A stretch of DNA of 64,000 nucleotides from an uncultured Candidatus Saccharibacteria bacterium (GTDB lineage Bacteria; Patescibacteriota; Saccharimonadia; Saccharimonadales; Saccharimonadaceae): contig CAZQJY010000001.1 in NCBI GenBank assembly GCA_964593465.1, positions 74,480 through 138,479 of the forward strand. Direction: 5' to 3'. The notes beneath the pieces are model-generated. The model saw nothing but the letters and a program-made list of their open reading frames with translations. It was not told the DNA's origin and ran no database searches. The translations under genes and the position numbers were made by a program. This document shows positions 52,268 through 63,918 of this stretch, piece after piece. Position 1 is the first letter of the stretch. Each line of letters starts with the position of its first letter.

Positions 52268-52722
52268 GCCAACAAGAATCAATAGAGCTTGCCAGCAAAA
52301 CCGTGCAAGACATCATATCCTTTTTTGAGGTAAATGTAGATATCGAAACCCAGGTCGAGGATGATGTAATTAATATTGCAGTTGGATCGAGTGAACTTAA
52401 TAGTTTACTGATTGGGCGTAACGCTGAGACGCTTCGTAGTTTGCAATCTATCGTTGTAAGCGTACTGCGCAATCAAGATGCTGAAATCCAGCGCGTCAAC
52501 ATCGATATTGCGGACTATAAGAAGCAACGAGCCGAGAAGCTGGCAGAAAAAGCTCGTAGCTGGATAGAGGAAGTTCGTACCACGGGTGAATCACATGTAG
52601 CAAACCTCAACGCAGCTGATAGGCGTGTAGTGCATCACGTAGCGGCAGAGTATAGCGACATCAAGACATTTTCTGAAGGCGAAGGCCGAGATCGTCGATT
52701 GATTATTGCTCGTACCCAGTAG
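52264..52722 (+). CDS. jag: Jag/KhpB-like RNA-binding protein (KH + R3H, no Jag_N)
   Basis: LIGRNAETLRSLQ, DIADY, DRRVVH, SEGEGRDR. Confidence 0.88.
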   Translation: MSQQESIELASKTVQDIISFFEVNVDIETQVEDDVINIAVGSSELNSLLIGRNAETLRSLQSIVVSVLRNQDAEIQRVNIDIADYKKQRAEKLAEKARSWIEEVRTTGESHVANLNAADRRVVHHVAAEYSDIKTFSEGEGRDRRLIIARTQ

Positions 52723-53173
52723 TCGAGTTCTGTTCTTGTTGAGCTTTGCGTAACTTGGCGTAGGTACTTGCGCCAACGAGCGCAGCGCTTGCAATGGCTG
52801 TTGTAAGTGGGCCACCAGGTGCACGCTCAATAACCTGTTGAGCAGCCTCGTATGTATCCTGAGTGATGCCAGGTTTTACATGTTCAGCGGCGATCCATAC
52901 GCTGCTACCTATAAAAATGACAGCATGGGCAGTGTTTCTAAAAGCATCTACTTTTTCTTGGAATGCACTGCGCCTGGGTGTTTCTATCGAACCCTCTTGA
53001 TAATTTGATGGTCCATATTCATCCTGAGCTGGTTCAAAAGTGTTTTTTGCCACACCATAGGGCTGCATATCAGGGGTACCATCAGAATTCCATATATTAA
53101 CAGCAGTGGTATTGGGTGTAATTTCGGGGATAGGCCGCTATTCTTCGGTATTTGTTTTTAGAGTTTCTACCAT
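52703..53173 (-). pseudogene. hypothetical membrane protein with an in-frame TAG near its 5' end
   Basis: ATG 53173 is in frame with ORF 52703..53068 but has TAG at codon 12 (53138-53140); TTGACT-17-TAAAAT promoter ends 6 nt before that ATG. Confidence 0.45.
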
Positions 53174-53226: not shown

Positions 53227-54318
53227 TCAATGTAATGCAATTTTATATTGATCAAGCGTTTCTTTGGCCATAGTGTGCCAAGAGTATTTTTCTCGCTGTT
53301 TTTTGCCGTTTGTAATGAGATTGGTGCGTAGTTCGTCGTTAATAAGTACATCACTTATAGCCCGTACGATATCATCGACACTGGTGGGTGTGAAATAGTG
53401 AGCTGCGTCGCCTAGTACTTCTGGCATACACGAGGCGTTACTACTTATCACGGGTGCATCGTATTGCATTGCCTCGAGTGGTGGTAGACCAAAACCTTCC
53501 ATGAGCGAAGGAAACACATATGCAGCGCAGTTCTTGTAAAGCCAGTCACGCTGGTCATCTTCGATAAATCCGGTAAAGTGAATGTTTTTATAGCCTTTTT
53601 TCTCAAAATACTCTTTAGTTATTTGTGCACTTTTATTGACGCGCCCTACAAGGATGAGTCCGAGATCAGGATGATTAGCTAATAGTTTTTGATGTGCATC
53701 GCCAAGGCGTTTGATATTTTTGTAATCACTTTGCTGGCCGACGTAGAGTAGAAATTTTTTATATGGTGTGTCATACGGTGTTACTTTGCCAGCTTGAAGT
53801 TTATCGGCTGCTTCGTAGGTGACAACTACTTTATCTTCTATACCTTTGTGAAATGCTTCTACCTCGCGTTTAACGGTCCATGTCGGCACGAGTACGCGAG
53901 TGCTAGTAGTGAGTGCACGGTGAAACGCGTATCGTCCTATGAGTTGTTTGATGTGAAATACTAACCAGTTTTTATCTGAGTTGTAGGTATTAAGAAGAGT
54001 GAGGTCGTGAAACGTGGTGATGTGCGTGCCCTTGTAACGTAGCGGTTGCTGTGGCATACAGAAATGTACCAAGTCTGCATTTAGCTCATTGAGATAACGT
54101 AAAAACCGTGTCTGTTCGGCAAATGAATAATTCTTAAAATCAATAGTTTGTACAGAAAAGTTTGGATTAGTCGGAGTATAAAAATCCCTGTCTTTACTTG
54201 GCACCAGGATTGTATAAGTATTATCGATATCAATCTGCTCAAGATAGTGGATTAAGCGCTCGACATAACGACCGGTAGAGCTGTTGATGATGCGAGCATC
54301 GATAGCGATATGGCTCAT
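53227..54318 (-). CDS. glycosyltransferase family 4
   Basis: IAIDAR, HDL, LYVG..YKNI, FVFPSLMEGFGLPPLEAM. Confidence 0.92.
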   Translation of the reverse strand: MSHIAIDARIINSSTGRYVERLIHYLEQIDIDNTYTILVPSKDRDFYTPTNPNFSVQTIDFKNYSFAEQTRFLRYLNELNADLVHFCMPQQPLRYKGTHITTFHDLTLLNTYNSDKNWLVFHIKQLIGRYAFHRALTTSTRVLVPTWTVKREVEAFHKGIEDKVVVTYEAADKLQAGKVTPYDTPYKKFLLYVGQQSDYKNIKRLGDAHQKLLANHPDLGLILVGRVNKSAQITKEYFEKKGYKNIHFTGFIEDDQRDWLYKNCAAYVFPSLMEGFGLPPLEAMQYDAPVISSNASCMPEVLGDAAHYFTPTSVDDIVRAISDVLINDELRTNLITNGKKQREKYSWHTMAKETLDQYKIALH

Positions 54319-55190
54319 GAAGATTGCCTCAGTAATTTTTGTAAGGCCGGGGTGATGTTCGTTACGCTATCGCACATAGTTACTCCAGCTTCTTGTAGCT
54401 TGGTAGTTTTGTAGCCTGCAGATTCCTGTTTACTTCCAAGAATAGCGCCAGCGTGACCAAGTTGTATACCTGCTGGTGCAGCGTGACCTGCAACATAACC
54501 AACGATAGGTTTGGTGATATGCGTTGCGATATAGTCTGCGGCTTTGTTTTCACTCTGACCGCCTATTTCACCAATCATCACGATAGCATCGACAGTTTCA
54601 TCTGATTGGAATTTTTTGAGACAATCGACAAAGTCTAGCCCCTTAATCTGATCGCCACCAATTCCTACTACGTAGCGCTCGCCAAGCCCTACTGTGGAAA
54701 GTGCTGCTACAACCTCGTAAGTGAGCGTACCACTGCGACTCACGACGCCGATTCGACCCGGTGTGAGGATTTGATTTGGGATAATACCAAGCTTGGATTC
54801 ACCTGGCGTGGCGATACCGGGGCAGTTGGGGCCAATGAGTATTGAATTACTCTTGGCTAGTTTTAGCTGCACTGCGAGCATGTCATGGACAGGAATACCT
54901 TCGGTGATACATACGATCAGTGGTACTTTGGCATCAATCGCTTCAAACAATGCACCGCGAGCATGAGCAGCAGGGACAAATATGACACTAGCATCTACCT
55001 TATGTTCTTTTTGTATGTCATGGATGGATTTATAGACAGGCACACCGTCAACTATTTGACCTGCCTTGTTTGGGGAAGTGCCGGCTACAATATTTGTACC
55101 GTAGGCGCGCATAGCTTGAGCGTGAAATGAGCCGTGTGAGCCAGTAATACCTTGTACTATCACGTTTTTTGGCGTGAATATGTTAGTCAT
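54315..55190 (-). CDS. sucD: succinyl-CoA synthetase alpha subunit
   Basis: VQGITG..G.FH, GPNCPG, SRSGTLTYE, GIGGD, IGEIGG, LGHAGAI phospho-His. Confidence 0.92.
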   Translation of the reverse strand: MTNIFTPKNVIVQGITGSHGSFHAQAMRAYGTNIVAGTSPNKAGQIVDGVPVYKSIHDIQKEHKVDASVIFVPAAHARGALFEAIDAKVPLIVCITEGIPVHDMLAVQLKLAKSNSILIGPNCPGIATPGESKLGIIPNQILTPGRIGVVSRSGTLTYEVVAALSTVGLGERYVVGIGGDQIKGLDFVDCLKKFQSDETVDAIVMIGEIGGQSENKAADYIATHITKPIVGYVAGHAAPAGIQLGHAGAILGSKQESAGYKTTKLQEAGVTMCDSVTNITPALQKLLRQSS

Positions 55191-56253
55191 TTAACTTTCC
55201 TATACTTGAGATTGCGGATGTTAGTGAGGAGTGAAGTGTAAGATCGCTTTTGGTTAATATTTCACGTGCCTCATGGATATTAGTACCCTCTAGACGAATG
55301 TAGAGCGTAGGGAGAGTGTCAATTTCATCGCGCGCAGCAAGAATGGCACGTGCTACTTCGTCGCAGCGAGTAATGCCAGCAAAGATATTGATAACGATGG
55401 CTTGGAGTTTAGGGTAGTCCATAAGCTTACGAAACGATGCTAATACCGACTCTTTGTTGGCACCACCACCTACGTCGAGGAAGTTGGCGGGTTCGTAGCC
55501 TGCGGCTTGCACCGCATCAACCGTCGCCATGGCAAGGCCTGCGCCATTAGCTATGGTTGCGACAGTGCCGTGACGATTTAGCTCTACAAAATTAGCACTG
55601 GCGGGCTTGTCGTAAAAATCCCAATCGGCGTGGCGAAATGCAGCGGCGTTATCGAGCTCCATCTTGCAGTCCGCTGCTACGGGTTTGTTGTCTGTTGTGA
55701 TGACGAGCGGGTTGATTTCGAGTAGTAGCGCGTCGTTGGCGTGCATGCAATCAAGTAGATTTTTTAGTAGTTCGCTTAGTGCAAATTCTTGATTTTCAAG
55801 CTCCAGGTATTCGGCTAGTGCAAGGGCGGTTGTCTCGATGGTAGCGGCACTGAGTATCTCACGGAAGAAAGCCTCGATAGGCTGCGACTCAATATCAACA
55901 CCGCCATCTTTGTGTGCCAGAAGGACGATCGCCTGTTCGTCACGATTAATGGTGAGATTGAGATATATTTCTCGGTCGATATCTACCAACTCTTCGACCA
56001 ACACGCTGACTGCTTTGTAGCCCTCTATATCCGCGGCGAAAACCGTAGGAAGCGTTTGCTTAAGTTCGGCCTGTGTTTTTACGATTTGTATACCACCGTA
56101 TTTATTACGTCGTCCAGTGAGTACTTGGGACTTGAGAACGGCGGGAAGATTTGATAAAAAACCACTAGTAGGATCAGTAATTAGTTGAGATTCTGGCACC
56201 GCGACGCCAGAAGATGCGAGCAGGGATTTTGCTTCATATTCAAGGAGTTTCAT
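55183..56253 (-). CDS. sucC: succinyl-CoA synthetase beta subunit (divergent)
   Basis: LLEYEAK, EINPL, DCKMELD, NGAGLAMATVD, ANFLDVGGGA, NIFAGITRCD, RLEGTN. Confidence 0.9.
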   Translation of the reverse strand: MKLLEYEAKSLLASSGVAVPESQLITDPTSGFLSNLPAVLKSQVLTGRRNKYGGIQIVKTQAELKQTLPTVFAADIEGYKAVSVLVEELVDIDREIYLNLTINRDEQAIVLLAHKDGGVDIESQPIEAFFREILSAATIETTALALAEYLELENQEFALSELLKNLLDCMHANDALLLEINPLVITTDNKPVAADCKMELDNAAAFRHADWDFYDKPASANFVELNRHGTVATIANGAGLAMATVDAVQAAGYEPANFLDVGGGANKESVLASFRKLMDYPKLQAIVINIFAGITRCDEVARAILAARDEIDTLPTLYIRLEGTNIHEAREILTKSDLTLHSSLTSAISSIGKLND

Positions 56254-56271: not shown

Positions 56272-57279
56272 TTACTTACCGGTGAAGAATCTGCGAAACT
56301 TACGTAGACCAGTTTGGTCTGGCGGCAGATCGAGCCATAGGATGGATTTTATATAGTCTGCTGAGACTTTTCTGTTACGTTGTATTTTGATACGAGCCGG
56401 GACTGCATGGAACCAAAATAAGTACACACTCATAAGCAAACCCTTGACCGCAGGTGTGTATCGCTTTTTTTTGATTGCGTGTCCAAATATAAGCCAGTAG
56501 GCAAGCAGAAAGCGAAAACCGATAGGGAATAGTAGTCTAGAAGGGGTATTTTTTGCAAAAAGTAGCGGGAGATTTTTGAACGTATGGTAGATGGGTAGGT
56601 CGGGTAGACTCGAACTGGAGGCTCCACGTTTATGATAGATAATGGCTTTGTCTGTAAAATATGCCTTGTATCCATGAAGCTGTGCTCGAAAGCTCAGGTC
56701 TACATCTTCGTAGTACATGAAAAATGTTTCATCGAATAGTCCTACTTGCTGAAAAACCTCCGTATTGTAGAGTGTGCCTGCGCCACTGCCGCCAAAGACA
56801 AAACCACTTTTTGATGCATACTTAGTGAGTTTATCGCGATCTCTCGGAAAGGGAAGTCCCCATGTGGAGTACCAATCACCAGTACTATCGATTGTCTTGC
56901 GGTCACTATGGAGTACGAGACTTGTAGTGATACTACTAGCATATTCTTTACTAGCTGTCACAAGTTCTGTGAGCCATTTCGGGTGGGCGACAGCGTCGTT
57001 ATTGATGAGTGCTACATAATCAAAGCCGTACAGTAACGCGTTGCGTATACCAGTATTAACGCCGCCAGCAAAGCCAATGTTTTTTTGGTTATGAATTATA
57101 TGTATGCTATCCGATTTTATAGAATCGAGCAATACACGTGTACTTGGCTCGGATGACGCATTATCTACAACAAAAATCTCAAAATTTGTGTAACTTTGGC
57201 GTGTAAGTGACTCAACACAAGCAAGTGTGTCCGAGATTCCATTCCAATTTAGTACGATAACAGCAACTTTTTTAGTCAT
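56272..57279 (-). CDS. glycosyltransferase family 2 (rhamnosyltransferase-like)
   Basis: IVLNWN, VVDNAS, N.GFAGG.N, NNDA, GLFDE.FFMYYEDVDL..R. Confidence 0.9.
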   Translation of the reverse strand: MTKKVAVIVLNWNGISDTLACVESLTRQSYTNFEIFVVDNASSEPSTRVLLDSIKSDSIHIIHNQKNIGFAGGVNTGIRNALLYGFDYVALINNDAVAHPKWLTELVTASKEYASSITTSLVLHSDRKTIDSTGDWYSTWGLPFPRDRDKLTKYASKSGFVFGGSGAGTLYNTEVFQQVGLFDETFFMYYEDVDLSFRAQLHGYKAYFTDKAIIYHKRGASSSSLPDLPIYHTFKNLPLLFAKNTPSRLLFPIGFRFLLAYWLIFGHAIKKKRYTPAVKGLLMSVYLFWFHAVPARIKIQRNRKVSADYIKSILWLDLPPDQTGLRKFRRFFTGK

Positions 57280-59806
57280 TGATTTGATCCGTATAGGTAC
57301 GTGAAGTATATGATGCAATGATGCTTTGTGATTTTTTACTCATAGCGAGCAAAGCTTTGTTGCTGGTTTTTTTGTTGGCTATCTTTTCGATAGCACGGGC
57401 GATATCTTGTATGTTGGTATGATCAATAAGGTAGCCATTTTTACCATCGAGTAATTGCTCATCTACTCCTGAAGAGTTATTACGTAGTACGATGTGCCCC
57501 ATAGTCATACCTTCGGCAATATAGAGCCCAAACGTTTCATTGATAGAGCAACAGAGTACGGTATTACATTGGCTTGCGATTTGCATAGCCTCGGGCTTTG
57601 GTACGGTGTCGTGTATGGTGACAAACTTGCTTAGGGTTGATGCGGCAAGCCAACGGATTTGTTGTGATATATAGTCGTCTTGGCGCACGGAGAGGAGGCT
57701 AAGGTGAACGTTTCGATAGAGAGAAGGGTTCTTTGTATAGTAGTGGTCGACAAAATACTGCAATGCACTAAGTGCGAGCACCTGGCCTTTGCGACCATCC
57801 GAAGAGGTGCCGGAAAGCCACATATGTATCGTGTCGAAATCTTTTGCTACGCGAGGTTTGGTGTATTCGCTCGGTACATCAACTCGTAGGTGTACTACTT
57901 GGCCTTTTGTGCTTAGCATCTCTGCATACTCGTCGGCAGTTTTTTGTGAAGGATAGAGGAGGCTTAATTTATCTGAGTTTGCGAGTGATGTAATGCGTCG
58001 CAGGTTTTGCGTGTCAGAAAATACAGGATTTACTGCAGGGATTTGTGAGGGGTCTTCGTGTATGAACCAATGCGCGTGCTTAAGTCGCCCGAGCTTAAGC
58101 CAGGTGAGGATAAAATCTCGATACGAATCATAGATAGCGATGGTGTTGATGAGTACGAAGTCATCTGGATGCAAGCCAAGCTGCAGGCGAATAAAACGAA
58201 AACTAGCGCCATACACAGCCTTTTCTGGCTTGATTCCAAGCGATTTGAGGTAGTTTTCCTGTGGCTGGGTGATTCCTGGTGTAATAACACGCACGCATGC
58301 CGCACCGTAAGTATCCACATACTCCTCTATCATCTGTAGTAGTACGCTTGGTGCACCAGTGTGATCGATAGGGTGTGATATGAAGACAAACTGTTTATCT
58401 CTAGAGTTTGTGCGTTTATGGGTCTGTGCGGCGATAATATCGAATGCGACTCTGGCAGTTTTTCGAATGCCTTTAGTGCGGACTTTTTGCACGAGCTTGG
58501 CAGGGTTTTTGATAAGTGAGTAGGTTCGTGAGGTGTGAGGTTGTGCTATGAGTTGAGGTGTAGCTACTGCAATTAACTTTCTGAGAGATGCTTCTTGATT
58601 GTAGGGTAGTGTACCTGTATCGATGATGCGTGCAAGTGGTGCTGTGGCAGTATCCCAGTAGTAGGTTGCTTTGAGTTTCTGTACGTTTTTACGGATTTTT
58701 TGCAGCTGCTTTGGTTGCGTATGAGCTGCTGTAATGAGTTTCTCGATGCTTGTAGCTGACAAATCATCAAGCTGCATGGCAGCACCTTTTTGAACCATCT
58801 CATCACTTAGGGGGTCGCCACCATTAGTGATGGTTGCGGTTTCACCCCATACAAAATCAATCACGCGTGTACGCCACGAAAACTTGTTTTCTTCACCTGG
58901 TTGATTTAAGCTGACGATAATGTCGGCATGACTAAACCAATCAACTCGATCGTCGTAATCTATCCAATCAACAAAGAATACAGAGCGGTCTATGAGCTTG
59001 TGGTGGGTTGCGAACTCAAGTGCAGTGTCATATTGTCTGGCCATATCAGGGTTTGGATTGAAAGGATTTTTTCCACCCACAAACACAAACTTAATCGATG
59101 GATTACACGACAGTCGTTTGATCGCCTCTAGGTATTCTTCGACACGAAACCAAGGGTATAGCCCCCCAAACCACAGTACGACAAAATCATCCCTGGTGAT
59201 ACCTAGTGTACGATAAGGATTTTTAGTTGTAGCTGGTTTTTCACGGTGTAATCCAAACGGTGTATGGATGAGGCGCTTGGTATGGTACGATGCAGGGTTT
59301 ATGATGCCGAGCGCAGCCAGTACGCCTGTGTATAGTAATTCCTGCGCAGGGTTAGCATAGAGGAAGAAATCCCCACGTCGTAATGTGTGGTTGTGTCGTG
59401 CGAGGTCGGCCATGTAATTTTGATACTCAGTGGTTATGTCCTGTGCATTGCGTGCAGACACTTCTATATAAATAGGGACATATACATCAAGGATGAGCTG
59501 TGCGTCATCCCGAATATGGTCGGCGATAAATACCGATACGTCACCCATGCAGTAGCTCGCGATAACAGTGTCGTAAGAGTTGATAACTTGTATGAACTCA
59601 CTGTCGAGCTGCCATTGTATAAGTTTGATACCATCGTATTCTTCGAGTGTGAGGTTGAACCCGGCATTGATCGCGATAGTTACTTCGACACCCTGACTTG
59701 AAAGACCCTTAGCAAGCCCCCATGCCCGCATGCCACCACCCTCTATGGTCTGATGCTCTGGCGTGGGGACTGGTCCGTATGACACCACAAGACAGCGTTT
59801 ACTCAT
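57272..59806 (-). CDS. two-domain GT-B (GT4-like) glycosyltransferase
   Basis: GGGMRAWGLA, WFGGLYPW, RTRVIDF; second half with RKGQ..A, ETFGL.IAEGM..G. Confidence 0.8.
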   Translation of the reverse strand: MSKRCLVVSYGPVPTPEHQTIEGGGMRAWGLAKGLSSQGVEVTIAINAGFNLTLEEYDGIKLIQWQLDSEFIQVINSYDTVIASYCMGDVSVFIADHIRDDAQLILDVYVPIYIEVSARNAQDITTEYQNYMADLARHNHTLRRGDFFLYANPAQELLYTGVLAALGIINPASYHTKRLIHTPFGLHREKPATTKNPYRTLGITRDDFVVLWFGGLYPWFRVEEYLEAIKRLSCNPSIKFVFVGGKNPFNPNPDMARQYDTALEFATHHKLIDRSVFFVDWIDYDDRVDWFSHADIIVSLNQPGEENKFSWRTRVIDFVWGETATITNGGDPLSDEMVQKGAAMQLDDLSATSIEKLITAAHTQPKQLQKIRKNVQKLKATYYWDTATAPLARIIDTGTLPYNQEASLRKLIAVATPQLIAQPHTSRTYSLIKNPAKLVQKVRTKGIRKTARVAFDIIAAQTHKRTNSRDKQFVFISHPIDHTGAPSVLLQMIEEYVDTYGAACVRVITPGITQPQENYLKSLGIKPEKAVYGASFRFIRLQLGLHPDDFVLINTIAIYDSYRDFILTWLKLGRLKHAHWFIHEDPSQIPAVNPVFSDTQNLRRITSLANSDKLSLLYPSQKTADEYAEMLSTKGQVVHLRVDVPSEYTKPRVAKDFDTIHMWLSGTSSDGRKGQVLALSALQYFVDHYYTKNPSLYRNVHLSLLSVRQDDYISQQIRWLAASTLSKFVTIHDTVPKPEAMQIASQCNTVLCCSINETFGLYIAEGMTMGHIVLRNNSSGVDEQLLDGKNGYLIDHTNIQDIARAIEKIANKKTSNKALLAMSKKSQSIIASYTSRTYTDQIND

Positions 59807-59833: not shown

Positions 59834-60649
59834 TTATTCTGCGATGCAGCGATTGACGATATTGATGTCGACATAAAGGTGGTTTTCTGAGTCGGTTGCA
59901 TCGGCATCGTAGTAGCTATATTTTTCTGCAATAATAATGCGATCTGCCGACACTCCACGCTCGGTAAGCCCTCGGGTCAGTGTGGCTGCTCGTTGTTGAA
60001 ACAAGTTGTTTAGCGCTTCTTTTTCTTCATCTTTGATTGTATCAATCCTCTGGTAGCCTTCGAGTTCAAATACAAAATCCTTGCTCTCGGCGTTCTTGTA
60101 AAAGTCTGCCATTCTGTCAACAAGTAAGTTTCCACCAACAGGCGTCTTGTACTCGTCCGATTCTGGCAAAAATATCATAGTTGCGCCTCGTATTTTACGT
60201 GCGTACACTTTGGTAGAGTCTATATATGAGAGATCTGATTTATCGAGACAGTGCGATGCGATTGATGCTTCTTGAGGGGTTTCGGCTTTGTCATCTTGTG
60301 GTAGGTTGCCAATACTGTCGCCGTATTTTATTGATACGATGCGATTATTTTCTATACCGATGCGGATTTTTTTTGGACTATAGATGTCAGTGAAATTATA
60401 GAGTATATATATAGTAGATTCGTGCTGGTTCGCAGCTACTTTAGTGTAGTTACGATGAGTAATTTTTGTTGCGGCCGGTAGTTCAGAGTAGAGAGACTGC
60501 ATGGCGGCTGTATCTCCCGCTAGGGCAGCTTTCATGTAATCATTTGCAAATGCTGTGGCGCGTGCTTGCGGAGACAAAAAGAAAAAATACCCACCGATAC
60601 TAGCACCTAGAACGAGGATGGTTGTAAGTATAACAACAAGCTTCTTCAT
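59834..60649 (-). CDS. membrane-anchored protein with degenerate OmpA-like C-terminal domain
   Basis: N-terminal TM; IF..ESD..FELEGY..N.LFQQRA..L..RGV.ADRI; start ATG 60649. Confidence 0.6.
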   Translation of the reverse strand: MKKLVVILTTILVLGASIGGYFFFLSPQARATAFANDYMKAALAGDTAAMQSLYSELPAATKITHRNYTKVAANQHESTIYILYNFTDIYSPKKIRIGIENNRIVSIKYGDSIGNLPQDDKAETPQEASIASHCLDKSDLSYIDSTKVYARKIRGATMIFLPESDEYKTPVGGNLLVDRMADFYKNAESKDFVFELEGYQRIDTIKDEEKEALNNLFQQRAATLTRGLTERGVSADRIIIAEKYSYYDADATDSENHLYVDINIVNRCIAE

Positions 60650-60668: not shown

Positions 60669-61775
60669 TTATGTGTCCGTGTTGCGTAGTACGGCCTCAC
60701 GTAGCTTATTGACATTTTTTGACCATGAAAACTGTGCAAGATGCGAAGATACACCCCTGTCTGGCACAGGATGACCATTTGCGAGTGTAACTTGAATTTG
60801 ATGGGCAAACTCTGCTGCGTGTTTAGGTGATGCGTACCGTACTGCGCTACCACCAGCTTCTCTGAGTATCGGGATGTCTGATGCTACAACTGGCGTATCT
60901 GATGTGAGGGCTTCTAGTACAGGCATACCGAAGCCTTCGTATAGAGATGGCATGATGAAAATAGATGCACCTTGGTAGAGTGTCGACCTATCTTCTTGAT
61001 CAATAAATCCTATGTGAGCTATATTACACCCCTGGCGTTTGGCGGATGCGATAACCTCTTCTGTCTCTTCTGTACCCCAGCCTTTTGCGCCCCCGATCAC
61101 AAGCGGGTGAGTATTACGAATGGATTCTGGCAGTAATTCATAGGCGTGAATAAGTGTTACGAGATTTTTGCGAGGCTCCATGGTGCCTAGGAAAAGCATA
61201 TAATCTCCATCTGGGATATTGTATTTACTACGAACTGTAGCAATGGCTTTGGCGGATTGTTTGCCAGTGAATGATTCATCGGGTGGAATTGTTGTGACAA
61301 CACAACGTTGTGGGTCAATATCAAATTCTTCTACCAGTTCTTTTTTGACTGTCTCTGATACTGTGATGATAAAATCTGCTTGTTGGATCGACTGCGGTAC
61401 AACTCGACGCAAGTGCGCTAGGTTTTTACTTTCTACGGCATCTGGGTAGTAGAGGTAGGTAAGGTCGTGAATGACAGTTGCACGCAATGTAGAGTGTGTG
61501 GTGGACCATGTATCAAAGTTTGGAAATATTGTAAGGTCAACATCCGGACACCCTAGATCAAATGGGATTAGCAGTAGCCCGTAGCTACTAAGTTTGGTAT
61601 AGGCTCGATAAGTGAATTGTGACGGTGTGTGGTGGGAGGAGAAAAAGTTTACATAATATGTATCGAGTGAAATATCTTGCTCACGAGAAAGCGCATCAGC
61701 AAGAAGCTGTGTGTAGTTTGCCACACCAGACTTGTTGGGTAGCGAGAGGCAGCCTGCTTCAAGACGAACTTTCAT
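60669..61775 (-). CDS. glycosyltransferase family 4
   Basis: KSGVANY, IHDL, LFLGTMEPRKNL, PSLYEGFGMPVLEA. Confidence 0.92.
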   Translation of the reverse strand: MKVRLEAGCLSLPNKSGVANYTQLLADALSREQDISLDTYYVNFFSSHHTPSQFTYRAYTKLSSYGLLLIPFDLGCPDVDLTIFPNFDTWSTTHSTLRATVIHDLTYLYYPDAVESKNLAHLRRVVPQSIQQADFIITVSETVKKELVEEFDIDPQRCVVTTIPPDESFTGKQSAKAIATVRSKYNIPDGDYMLFLGTMEPRKNLVTLIHAYELLPESIRNTHPLVIGGAKGWGTEETEEVIASAKRQGCNIAHIGFIDQEDRSTLYQGASIFIMPSLYEGFGMPVLEALTSDTPVVASDIPILREAGGSAVRYASPKHAAEFAHQIQVTLANGHPVPDRGVSSHLAQFSWSKNVNKLREAVLRNTDT

Positions 61776-61851
61776 ATCTACTAAGCATTATACTACCTGT
61801 CGTCGGGTCGCCATATATATTGGATTATATGTGGTAAAATGAGTGGTGAAT

Positions 61852-62661
61852 ATGAAAACTAGTTTCTTTGAAAAATACCACTATTCCATGGTGTTGCTAC
61901 GCCAGCTTGTCATTACCGAATTCAAGCTTCGTTATCAAGGTTCAGTGCTTGGGTATGTCTGGTCGCTGCTTCGTCCGTTATTTTTATTTTTGATTTTATA
62001 TGTCGTGTTTGTCCACTTTCTCAAGATCCAGGGTGGCGAACATTGGCCTGTTGCGATGCTGTTGGGTATTGTACTATGGAGTTTTTTTGCCGAAGTAACA
62101 AACAATGGTATCACATCGATTGTTGGACGAGGAGATGTGATACGAAAAATCAACTTCCCTAAATACGTCATTGTTATAGCCGGGACAATTTCTGCATTTA
62201 TCAATCTACTTCTCAATATGCTTATTATTGCGGTGTTTATGCTTATTAATCAGGTGGAGCTTTCTTGGCACGCATTACTTTCACCATTATTAGTAGTAGA
62301 GGTGTTTGTATTTGCGCTAGGCTTGTCCTTTTTACTAAGTGCGATATTTGTAAAGCTTCGCGACATCAACTATATATGGGAAATTATTATGCAGGGGCTT
62401 TTCTATGCTTCGGCGGTAATCTACCCAATTTCGATGGTGGCGGAAAAAAGCGAGGCTGCAGCCAAATTCTTGCTACTTAACCCTGTGGCGCAAGCAATTC
62501 AGGATATGCGCTTTACACTTGTAAGTCAGGATACGCTCACACTTGTTTCACTGGCTGGATGGAAGTGGATGGCTATCCCTCTCGGTATTGTTGCGGTCAC
62601 GTTTGTAGTCGGTGCGCTGTACTTCAAGAAAAAATCGCCGACATTTGCGGAGGAGATATAA
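61852..62661 (+). CDS. wzm: Wzm-type ABC-2 polysaccharide export permease
   Basis: EFKLRYQGSVLGYVWSLLRPL, RDINYIW, FYAS..YP, LNP. Confidence 0.88.
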   Translation: MKTSFFEKYHYSMVLLRQLVITEFKLRYQGSVLGYVWSLLRPLFLFLILYVVFVHFLKIQGGEHWPVAMLLGIVLWSFFAEVTNNGITSIVGRGDVIRKINFPKYVIVIAGTISAFINLLLNMLIIAVFMLINQVELSWHALLSPLLVVEVFVFALGLSFLLSAIFVKLRDINYIWEIIMQGLFYASAVIYPISMVAEKSEAAAKFLLLNPVAQAIQDMRFTLVSQDTLTLVSLAGWKWMAIPLGIVAVTFVVGALYFKKKSPTFAEEI

Positions 62662-62664
62662 GAC

Positions 62665-63918
62665 ATGAGTGATGATCAAGTAGTAGTTAGTGTCAAAAAT
62701 GTCAAAAAGGATTTTCATCGCCCGCACGACAAAAGTTCAAAATCTATCAAGTCGGCTATAATCCACGCTGGTAAAAAGAGGAACAAAGAGATTGATACTC
62801 AACATGCACTCAGGGGTGTATCATTTGATGTCAAAAAAGGCGAATTTTTTGGCATAGTTGGCCGCAATGGATCTGGTAAATCTACGTTACTCAAGATGAT
62901 TGCAGGTATATATCAGCCAACGAGTGGAGAGATAGAAACGCACGGTAAACTTGTGCCATTTATTGAGTTGGGTGTTGGATTTAACCCAGAGCTTACGGGT
63001 CGCGAGAATGTTTATCTCAACGGCGCACTCCTCGGATTCACGACCAAAGAAATTGACGCGATGTATGATGATATCGTAGAGTTTGCGGAACTTCACGAGT
63101 TTATGGAGCAAAAACTCAAAAACTACTCAAGCGGCATGCAAGTTCGCTTGGCATTTGCCGTTGCTATCAAAGCACAGGGTGATGTGCTGATTCTAGATGA
63201 GGTACTGGCAGTGGGCGACGAGGCTTTTCAGCGTAAGTGCAATGACTACTTCTTTAAGGCGAAGCGCGAAGGTCGTACAGTTATCCTTGTAACACACTCT
63301 ATGGATAGTGTGCGTCAATTCTGTAGTCGTGCGATACTCATCGACGAAGGTAAGATCCAGGCAGAGGGTAATCCAGATAAAGTCGCGGCTCGGTATAGCA
63401 AGATGTTCATCGATGAATATATAGAAGAAGTTAATCAGCAGAGTGATGATACCGATAAGCCGGTAAAGCCAAAACTGAGTGATGTAGAGGTCGCATCTCT
63501 CAAGGTCTTGCAGGATGGCAAGCCTAAAAAATCAGTAGAGTTCCGAAAACCCTTTTCCATAGAAGTGACGTTTGACTCTGGGTCGGCCTATGAAAAGGTT
63601 GTTGTGGGTGTGCACGTAGTAGATCCTGCGGGACGCACGTTACATAGGGTTTCAACGAGACGTCTCGAAAAATATAGCATCAAAAAAGGCATCAATACGC
63701 TGAGGTTTGATATTGACAACATACTGACAGACGGTGAGTATGTAATAAACCTAGCCGCAGAAGAAAAAGATAGTAAAAAGCTACTTGTTCAGGAGCATGG
63801 CGAACATGCTTTTACTGTGATTGGTCTCGATACGTCAAAGTACAGCAAACTGAGTATGACCCATCCGGACATTACAATCGTAGTAGATGGGGAGAAGCAA
63901 TCGGATGAGGCGCATTAA
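62665..63918 (+). CDS. wzt: Wzt-type ABC ATPase with C-terminal carbohydrate-binding domain
   Basis: GRNGSGKSTL, YSSGMQVRLAF, DEVLAVGD..F; ~150-aa Ig-like C-terminal extension. Confidence 0.9.
   Translation: MSDDQVVVSVKNVKKDFHRPHDKSSKSIKSAIIHAGKKRNKEIDTQHALRGVSFDVKKGEFFGIVGRNGSGKSTLLKMIAGIYQPTSGEIETHGKLVPFIELGVGFNPELTGRENVYLNGALLGFTTKEIDAMYDDIVEFAELHEFMEQKLKNYSSGMQVRLAFAVAIKAQGDVLILDEVLAVGDEAFQRKCNDYFFKAKREGRTVILVTHSMDSVRQFCSRAILIDEGKIQAEGNPDKVAARYSKMFIDEYIEEVNQQSDDTDKPVKPKLSDVEVASLKVLQDGKPKKSVEFRKPFSIEVTFDSGSAYEKVVVGVHVVDPAGRTLHRVSTRRLEKYSIKKGINTLRFDIDNILTDGEYVINLAAEEKDSKKLLVQEHGEHAFTVIGLDTSKYSKLSMTHPDITIVVDGEKQSDEAH

Follow-up and report, generated by a model that had tools for sequence, protein, structure and literature searches.

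A succinate-CoA ligase gene pair in a Saccharibacteria surface-glycan locus and its probable partnership with OpgC-family acyltransferases

The stretch of DNA described here, hereafter the window, comprises 64,000 nucleotides from an uncultured Candidatus Saccharibacteria bacterium and carries, embedded in an array of glycosyltransferase genes, the adjacent genes sucC and sucD, which encode the beta and alpha subunits of an adenosine diphosphate (ADP)-forming succinate-coenzyme A (CoA) ligase, referred to as SucCD. Comparison of this locus with related genomes suggests that SucCD is most likely a dedicated precursor supplier and not an enzyme of the tricarboxylic acid (TCA) cycle. The source genome (G000) amounts to 925 kb in 22 contigs and is rated 99.97% complete with 0% contamination. 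The window belongs to a 192-kb contig that also bears dnaA, dnaN, rnpA, and yidC, and the GC content of sucCD is unremarkable and equal to that of the remainder of the window; the region is therefore not a binning artifact.

The open reading frames (ORFs) of the window were classified by Pfam and NCBIfam profile matches (Table 1). The sucCD pair stands among genes for glycosyltransferases of families 2 and 4 (GT2 and GT4), with the wzm and wzt genes on one flank and the replication-origin region, consisting of jag/KhpB, yidC, rnpA, and dnaA-dnaN-recF, on the other. The locus combines an ABC-2 permease with a Wzt_C-bearing ATPase and several glycosyltransferases, which is the composition of a Wzm/Wzt-dependent surface polysaccharide locus, and these Pfam matches bear out the GT2/GT4 and wzm/wzt flanks given in a preliminary description of the sequence. 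The overlaps proposed there were likewise recovered by direct reading of the junctions: sucC and sucD share 8 nucleotides (ATGACTAA), the stop of sucD and the start of the following GT4 gene (GT4a) overlap as ATGA, and a gap of 18 nucleotides separates the stop of the GT2 gene from the start of sucC.

Table 1. Genes of the sucCD glycan locus (window positions) and the two opgC genes of the source genome G000 (contig positions; aa, amino acids).
Gene or product	Position	Strand	Profile matches and remarks
GT4 (GT4a), 363 aa	53227-54318	-	Pfam Glycos_transf_1 and Glyco_transf_4; last gene of the glycan array, adjoining jag/yidC/rnpA
sucD, alpha subunit, 291 aa	54315-55190	-	Pfam CoA_binding and Ligase_CoA; phosphohistidine loop GHAGA
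sucC, beta subunit of ADP-forming succinate-CoA ligase, 356 aa	55183-56253	-	Pfam ATP-grasp_2 and Ligase_CoA
GT2, directly 5' of sucC	56272-57318	-	Pfam Glycos_transf_2
Protein with two GT-B halves, 844 aa	57272-59806	-	Pfam Glycos_transf_1 at residues 724-817, weak Glyco_trans_1_2 at 224-376; C-terminal half is GT4
Signal-anchored protein, family unassigned	59834-60649	-	No Pfam or NCBIfam match; start probably an internal ATG (MKKLVV...)
GT4 (GT4b)	60669-61775	-	Pfam Glycos_transf_1; first gene of the minus-strand array
wzm, ABC-2 permease of glycan exporter	61843-62661	+	Pfam ABC2_membrane; divergent from the glycosyltransferase array
wzt, ABC ATPase with Wzt_C glycan-recognition domain	62665-63918	+	Pfam ABC_tran and Wzt_C
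opgC paralogue (C3 copy), outside the window	C3:58642-59793	+	PF10129 match
opgC paralogue (C7 copy), outside the window	C7:33398-34501	-	PF10129 match

The sucD product passes the equivalog threshold of the NCBIfam SucD model NF004230 (375.9 bits against a cut-off of 336), and SucD and SucC are 49% and 34% identical to their E. coli counterparts, respectively. In pairwise alignment, the E. coli SucD residues His246-alpha (within GHAGA), Glu208-alpha, and Cys123-alpha are kept, and His142-alpha is replaced by Leu, at a position that is also variable in archaeal and Elusimicrobia outgroups. Within the beta subunit, an alignment that includes E. coli SucC and 50 further sequences reveals the retention of Lys46, Glu197, Asn199, and Asp213, and a motif-level comparison reveals that of NGAGLAMATVD, PANFLDVGGGA, NIFAGITRCDE, and RLEGTN in the C-terminal domain. 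The ratios of nonsynonymous to synonymous substitution (dN/dS) relative to the closest relative, L001 (82% identity), are 0.11 for sucC and 0.035 for sucD, rough values with dS near saturation, and purifying selection on both genes is indicated. Judged by its sequence, the enzyme looks intact.

The preliminary description had drawn attention to the Gly-rich ATP-grasp loop of the beta subunit, which reads TGRRNKYGG instead of the canonical GGRGKAGG, with KSQVLTGRRNKYGG occupying the position of E. coli KCQVHAGGRGKAGG. This replacement is present in the window, but it is limited to a sub-clade of sequences at least 58% identical to the window SucC, whose members share it in the form TGRRNK[YF]GG, while the remaining Saccharibacteria SucC sequences retain GGRGK[AL]GG. 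The loop is best regarded as a derived, selected variant of this sub-clade, being neither a lineage-wide feature nor a sign of decay. Architectural variants of the pair also exist. SucC and SucD are fused in some genera, as in P0130 (686 aa, with SucC at residues 1-336, a linker, and SucD at residues 403-683, 50% identical to the window SucD) and in the genera g9 and g13, with open frames of 660-795 aa; at another locus (L011:11096-12565, MGCS01000002.1), a 489-aa Schlafen/AlbA_2 and HATPase_c_4 gene separates the otherwise overlapping sucC and sucD.

The metabolic context of SucCD was assessed by tblastn of E. coli K-12 proteins against the G000 genome (E<=0.01), with SucC, SucD, and Adk as positive controls, all of which matched. 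No match was obtained for the TCA-cycle and 2-oxoacid dehydrogenase proteins GltA, AcnB, Icd, SucA, SucB, SdhA, SdhB, FumA, FumC, Mdh, and AceF; for Pta, AckA, PflB/PflA, YdbK (pyruvate:ferredoxin oxidoreductase, PFOR), AdhE, and EutE of acetyl-CoA and acetate metabolism; for ScpA/ArgK/ScpB/ScpC, AtoD/A/B, and CaiA-D of the methylmalonyl-CoA pathway and CoA-transferases; for CoaE and Dfp (CoaBC) of CoA synthesis; or for DapD, Kbl (a proxy for 5-aminolevulinate (ALA) synthase), HemB, PlsX, FabH, FabD, and AcpP, representing other users of succinyl-CoA and lipid synthesis. The lack of a TCA cycle, which had earlier been taken from general descriptions of Saccharibacteria, is thus substantiated for this nearly complete genome, in which the SucC and SucD controls were readily found. 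Six-frame Pfam searches of G000 yielded no AMP-binding ligase, no Hexapep protein, and no CoaE, and identified three GNAT acetyltransferase-family genes and two Acyl_transf_3 (AT3) genes. By neither approach was an enzyme producing succinyl-CoA or another acyl-CoA detected apart from SucCD, which is the sole recognizable CoA-thioester-forming enzyme of the genome.

Several conventional destinations of succinyl-CoA were considered and discarded. Synthesis of diaminopimelate and lysine lacks DapD and any Hexapep protein; heme synthesis via ALA synthase lacks a Kbl/ALAS-type enzyme and HemB, despite a ferrochelatase homolog; a methylmalonyl-CoA pathway lacks ScpABC; and no genes of fatty-acid or acyl-carrier metabolism were matched. 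The ferrochelatase (HemH) homolog (G000 C6:48752-49747; 39% identity to E. coli, E 4e-75) may use scavenged porphyrin for the oxidase mentioned below.

The preliminary description had recommended a check of the genome for acyltransferases, and the two AT3 genes found by the Pfam search answer to this. The best Pfam match of both proteins is OpgC_C (PF10129), with scores of 84.2 and 111.6 bits (cut-off 21.4) and coverage of profile positions 1-350 of 358, the scores against the generic PF01757 being 50 and 39 bits. The two are paralogues with 30% identity. Both contain, in the first transmembrane helix, the R-X10-H motif (RGLFIVIIIIDH at residue 16 and RGGFLIAIIVDH at residue 20) that is absolutely conserved among AT3 proteins (PMC9833829), and Arg, Asp, and His are invariant in an alignment of the OpgC copies adjacent to sucC. 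A crude hydropathy scan gave about nine hydrophobic segments for the C7 protein and fewer resolved peaks for the C3 protein, the family expectation being about ten helices. The PF10129 family is named after OpgC of Rhodobacter sphaeroides (PMC9558356), and, as summarized in that article, this protein and its Brucella abortus homolog are required for the O-succinylation of periplasmic or cyclic glucans (Cogez 2002, Roset 2006, via PMC9558356). Other AT3 succinyltransferases include MdoC, ExoH, and probably IcaC, with cytoplasmic acyl-CoA thought to be the donor (PMC9558356, PMC4726272).

The C3 opgC is flanked on one side by the operon of a cytochrome bo3-type oxidase, whose COX1 gene lies at C3:54972-56315, and on the other by a gene resembling type-II NADH dehydrogenase (region G000 C3:53840-61051); the gene after COX1 was taken as the heme O synthase gene cyoE from its size and position only, and an aerobic respiratory chain is suggested for G000. 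In the closest relative (JAPUEH010000010.1; L112:5325-6472, L136; G522 C10:5358-6388), the C3-type opgC has an 80%-identical orthologue that carries two in-frame stops and is divided between two frames, representing either a pseudogene or an assembly error; sucCD and the C7-type opgC are retained there.

The distribution of sucC was compared with that of opgC among 301 genomes of the window's GTDB family, 122 of which contain PF10129. Both genes occur in 99 genomes, sucC alone in 1, opgC alone in 23, and neither in 178, corresponding to an odds ratio of 766 (Fisher p 1e-55); the lone genome with only sucC is 89% complete, and its SucC match lies at a contig end. Since Fisher tests ignore phylogeny, another accessory gene of comparable frequency, COX1 (cytochrome oxidase subunit I, present in 130 of the 301), was examined as a control: its odds ratio with sucC is 3.0, and the link between sucC and opgC holds separately in genomes with and without COX1. 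The generic AT3 family PF01757 is associated with sucC more weakly (odds ratio 22) because other AT3 types occur in genomes without sucC, which makes the OpgC-specific model the informative one. In at least eight genera, some species have both genes and others neither (g1, with G507 and G533; g8, with G074; g11, g15, g16, g24, g30, and g226), a pattern that indicates repeated joint loss. SucCD is essentially never found without OpgC, whereas OpgC also occurs without SucCD, so that SucCD looks like an accessory of OpgC and not the reverse.

This association extends to gene order. Directly 5' of sucC and on the same strand, opgC is found in 9 of 35 sucC-centered loci, its products being 35-46% identical to the C3 paralogue, and in six of the eight loci examined the opgC ORF ends at the sucC start or 1-4 nucleotides past it. 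An OpgC-centered alignment search (A1) retrieving 33 loci identified opgC-sucC-sucD in 14 of them, five further species included. At least 14 species have opgC immediately before sucC, often with the stop of one overlapping the start of the other. Coordinates from the family sample likewise place opgC next to sucC in G458 (a complete genome, CP011211, with the opgC-sucCD operon at 657942-661000), G185, G555, G098, G484, G441, G450, and G446 (two contigs), and in G579 opgC lies within about 750 bp of sucC. Genomes with an opgC adjacent to sucC usually carry a second copy elsewhere. Loci with opgC next to sucCD keep this trio between wzm/GT2 and GtrB/GtrA/GT4.

A search for related loci retrieved 35 from Saccharibacteria, with SucC identities of 44-82%. 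According to tblastn with the window proteins, 33 of them keep the order wzt-wzm, a GT2 or GT4 gene, sucC, sucD, a variable segment of 0-5 kb, GT4a, jag, yidC, rnpA, and dnaA, an arrangement shared by more than 30 Saccharibacteria species, and the sucCD-glycan linkage is thus not unique to a single assembly, the outcome that would have spoken against it. The variable segment usually encodes a 317-aa GtrB/DPM1-like GT2 and a GtrA-like protein, and sometimes a cellulose-synthase-like GT2, GH81, GH18-CBM5/12, ParA, or other products. Two such segments (L005:3108-7523 and L011:13734-17656) contain a cellulose-synthase-like GT2 together with an HlyD-like protein and GH81, or with a GH18 bearing CBM5/12, and are candidate cassettes for an extra exopolysaccharide or for glycan remodeling. 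Direct overlap of sucD with the GT4 gene is confined to the window genome and L001, and elsewhere 1-5 kb of other glycan genes intervene. The translational coupling proposed in the preliminary description stands as far as the sucC/sucD and sucD/GT4 overlaps themselves are concerned, but its GT4 part is specific to the genus.

The lineage named in that description also proved too broad, as SucC turned up in 44 of 401 genomes sampled from the class, none of them outside the window's own GTDB family, and, inside that family, in 100 of 301 genomes spanning 42 of 95 genera, or about a third of the species. In G507, a genome of the same genus that is 97% complete, sucCD is cleanly missing and GT4a (78% identical) abuts GT2, followed by wzm/wzt; orthologues of GT4a are present in all relatives examined, those lacking sucCD included. 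Since the glycan genes are kept where sucCD is missing, the backbone machinery does not depend on SucCD, which fits a role in decoration better than a biosynthetic requirement. In a FastTree phylogeny of 177 SucC sequences, those of Saccharibacteria are monophyletic (support 0.92, or 0.996 with two unnamed sequences included); the tree did not resolve a donor lineage or sister group, and the best tblastn outgroups, Elusimicrobia and archaea, are not specific sisters. Monophyly and restriction to one family fit a single acquisition of sucCD followed by many losses.

Beyond the end of the window, the glycan locus continues (G000 C1:138366-149584) with two DUF4422 proteins, one of them fused to a GT8-like part, a UDP-galactopyranose mutase (Glf), a GT4, a NUDIX-like ORF, and a GalE-type epimerase, and contains a run of N at approximately C1:140.8-141.0 kb. 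The combination of Glf, the two DUF4422 proteins, the GT4, and the epimerase points to a galactofuranose-containing polymer as the putative product exported by Wzm/Wzt. Within the window, the GT2 gene upstream of sucC is rhamnosyl-/galactofuranosyl-transferase-like, matching NCBIfam rhamnosyltransferase and GlfT1 models, both below the cut-off. If the longer ORF were used for the signal-anchored protein, it would run about 185 nucleotides into the upstream GT4 gene. A 121-aa ORF between GT4a and jag (window 52703-53068, minus strand) has no family match, and L001 alone has a conserved counterpart, at 48% identity. The unannotated proteins of the cluster (the 339-aa and 121-aa ORFs and the N-terminal half of the 844-aa protein) were considered as hidden acyltransferases and rejected, having no family match and resembling an exported protein and the GT-B fold.

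The absence of a TCA cycle and of any other CoA-thioester-forming enzyme, the restriction of SucCD to genomes with opgC, and the frequent union of these genes in one operon make a role in surface succinylation the most likely one. That SucCD furnishes the succinyl-CoA with which OpgC succinylates an envelope polymer is given a probability of about 0.6. In the proposed mechanism, SucCD would use ATP, imported succinate, and scavenged CoA to form cytoplasmic succinyl-CoA, from which the two presumably polytopic membrane acyltransferases of the OpgC family would take the succinyl group and move it onto an extracytoplasmic envelope polymer, and the released CoA would then be recharged by SucCD. 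The likeliest acceptor would be the putative galactofuranose-containing polysaccharide made and exported by the surrounding GT2/GT4/wzm-wzt locus. That the OpgC proteins of G000 transfer succinyl from succinyl-CoA to a glycan is suggested by analogy with the named members of the family and by their coupling to SucCD. Two roles had been offered in the preliminary description, and glycan acylation is the one favored by the two OpgC genes of G000, the near-perfect co-occurrence with sucC, and the opgC-sucC-sucD operons of other species. A more far-reaching version, according to which cells unable to make CoA and devoid of CoA-dependent central metabolism would cycle scavenged CoA between SucCD and OpgC in a minimal closed economy whose sole purpose is to furnish a wall polysaccharide containing galactofuranose with negatively charged succinyl esters, as a lineage-specific determinant of interaction with the bacterial host or of protection from it that was gained once in one family and repeatedly discarded as a unit, is doubtful.

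A number of observations weigh against succinylation by way of OpgC, and three alternatives, which jointly account for a substantial minority of the probability, have to be considered alongside it. All of the evidence is comparative, the co-occurrence statistics ignore phylogeny, and no transporter for succinate or CoA was identified in the analysis. Furthermore, opgC occurs without sucC in the 23 family genomes mentioned above, at least five of them 98-99% complete, and in 33 genomes from other Saccharimonadia families. The other role offered in the preliminary description was energy conservation, in which SucCD would run toward succinate and draw ATP from succinyl-CoA or a different acyl-CoA through substrate-level phosphorylation, in the manner of the acetate:succinate CoA-transferase/succinyl-CoA synthetase (ASCT/SCS) cycle. 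The reaction of SucCD is reversible, substrate-level ATP formation is the canonical role of succinyl-CoA synthetase, and the energy metabolism of the organism is sparse, but a source of thioesters is missing, as neither a CoA-transferase (family I, family III, or ScpC type) nor PFOR, pyruvate formate-lyase, the E2 component of pyruvate dehydrogenase, 2-oxoglutarate dehydrogenase, or methylmalonyl-CoA mutase was detected in G000, nor were CoaE or CoaBC. With the tie to respiration being weak (odds ratio 3 for COX1) and the near-total restriction of SucCD to OpgC genomes left unexplained, this role is unsupported and very improbable. Succinate is presumed to be the acid of the enzyme from sequence comparison. 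SucCD might charge CoA for general use with a changed or broadened choice of acid, acting on acetate, malate, or another small acid and serving, beyond any succinylation of a glycan, all CoA-dependent transferases, that is, the three GNATs, which need acyl-CoA too, as well as the two OpgC proteins. It is the only CoA ligase detected; its beta subunit falls below the SucC equivalog cut-offs (NF001913, 283.9 against 370 bits; TIGR01016, 268.8 against 375.55 bits), the Gly loop of the window sub-clade is non-canonical, FAGI replaces FGGI in most Saccharibacteria SucC sequences, and SucCD homologs are known that act on different acids, one being the sulfoacetate ligase SauCD (PMC10413351). However, SucC is the top NCBIfam model for this subunit, with 283.9 bits against 221.9 for malate-CoA ligase, the motifs of the C-terminal domain, which handles the acid and CoA, are almost canonical, and the characterized members of the OpgC family are succinyltransferases, which together render a general charging role unlikely.

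Both opgC genes of G000 lie outside the sucCD cluster, one beside murT/gatD-like genes and the other between the cytochrome-oxidase and type-II NADH dehydrogenase (NDH-2)-like genes, so that a polymer other than the Wzm/Wzt glycan may be the acceptor. It is conceivable that sucCD landed near oriC in an ancestor and simply stayed, its product meeting an unrelated need or supplying OpgC for the modification of a different polymer, peptidoglycan or a lipoglycan for example. The region adjacent to dnaA is highly syntenic in the lineage, and position alone is therefore weak evidence for a glycan link. Congeners without sucCD, among them G507, where GT2 abuts GT4a, keep the same glycan genes, as do eight other sucC-less genomes, and the two most divergent sucCD loci, L033 and L034 (44% identity), lie outside any glycan locus, among unrelated genes annotated by hand (CYTH, an MFS transporter; histidine kinases). 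Inherited synteny is nevertheless quite unlikely as a full account, because the opgC-sucCD trio is still placed between wzm/GT2 and GtrB/GtrA/GT4 and GT2-sucC-sucD-GT4 form a compact run of genes in one direction whose stops and starts overlap. As a separate observation, the MFS transporter gene that follows sucD in L033 (L033:12591-13751; OY969928) is a possible succinate importer.

Attachment to host bacteria is the way of life of Saccharibacteria and other bacteria of the candidate phyla radiation (CPR), and almost nothing is known of the chemistry of their surfaces. Succinylation through OpgC would yield a testable prediction, namely that one Saccharibacteria family succinylates an envelope polymer by means of a three-gene module, opgC, sucC, and sucD, and the natural presence and absence variants within single genera can be used as controls. 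An enzyme of central metabolism would, in that case, have come through extreme genome reduction solely to supply the decoration of the surface. It follows as a caution that sucCD in metagenome bins should not be taken to indicate a partial TCA cycle, and the question is raised of how organisms without CoA biosynthesis acquire and keep CoA.

Compared with known systems, the window SucCD resembles E. coli SucCD (b0728/b0729) in its two subunits, overlapping genes, phosphohistidine loop, Glu208-alpha, Glu197-beta, and Mg/ATP ligands, and differs in having no surrounding TCA cycle, a beta subunit shorter by about 30 residues, a location in a surface-glycan locus, and a phyletic tie to an acyltransferase. 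Succinyl-CoA synthetase is also kept without a complete TCA cycle in hydrogenosomes and anaerobes, where it takes part in the ASCT/SCS cycle. That cycle requires a CoA-transferase and a source of acetyl-CoA, neither of which is present in G000 (no ScpC, AtoDA, CaiB, YdbK, PflB, AceF, or Pta at E<=0.01). SauCD of Bilophila wadsworthia, a sulfoacetate-CoA ligase of the ADP-forming type (PMC10413351), is likewise a SucCD homolog that activates an acid for a specialized pathway outside the TCA cycle; it is catabolic and has changed its acid specificity, whereas the window SucCD is nearer to SucC in sequence and its proposed pathway is envelope decoration.

With OpgC of R. sphaeroides and B. abortus, the G000 proteins share a full-length PF10129 match, the AT3 R-X10-H motif, and, probably, a polytopic membrane nature. 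No tblastn match to the glucan synthase OpgG/OpgH was found in G000, and the acceptor therefore differs from that of these two bacteria. Proteobacterial OpgC draws its succinyl-CoA from the TCA cycle, whereas here a private SucCD appears to supply it, from the same operon in many species. Mycobacterial SucT is another AT3 succinyltransferase. ExoH (succinoglycan, S. meliloti), E. coli MdoC/OpgC, and IcaC (poly-N-acetylglucosamine, PNAG) correspond to the proposed concept of a stand-alone membrane acyltransferase that uses cytoplasmic succinyl-CoA to modify an exported glycan (PMC9558356, PMC9833829); these proteins belong to PF01757 proper, none has been described with a dedicated SucCD, and E. 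coli OpgC gave no tblastn match in G000. In the literature searched, no paper mentioning SucCD in Saccharibacteria was found. The SucCD and OpgC families are both known, and what is new is the setting, in which an orphan SucCD of a TCA-less, CoA-auxotrophic episymbiont would act as the private supplier of OpgC from within a wall-polysaccharide locus.

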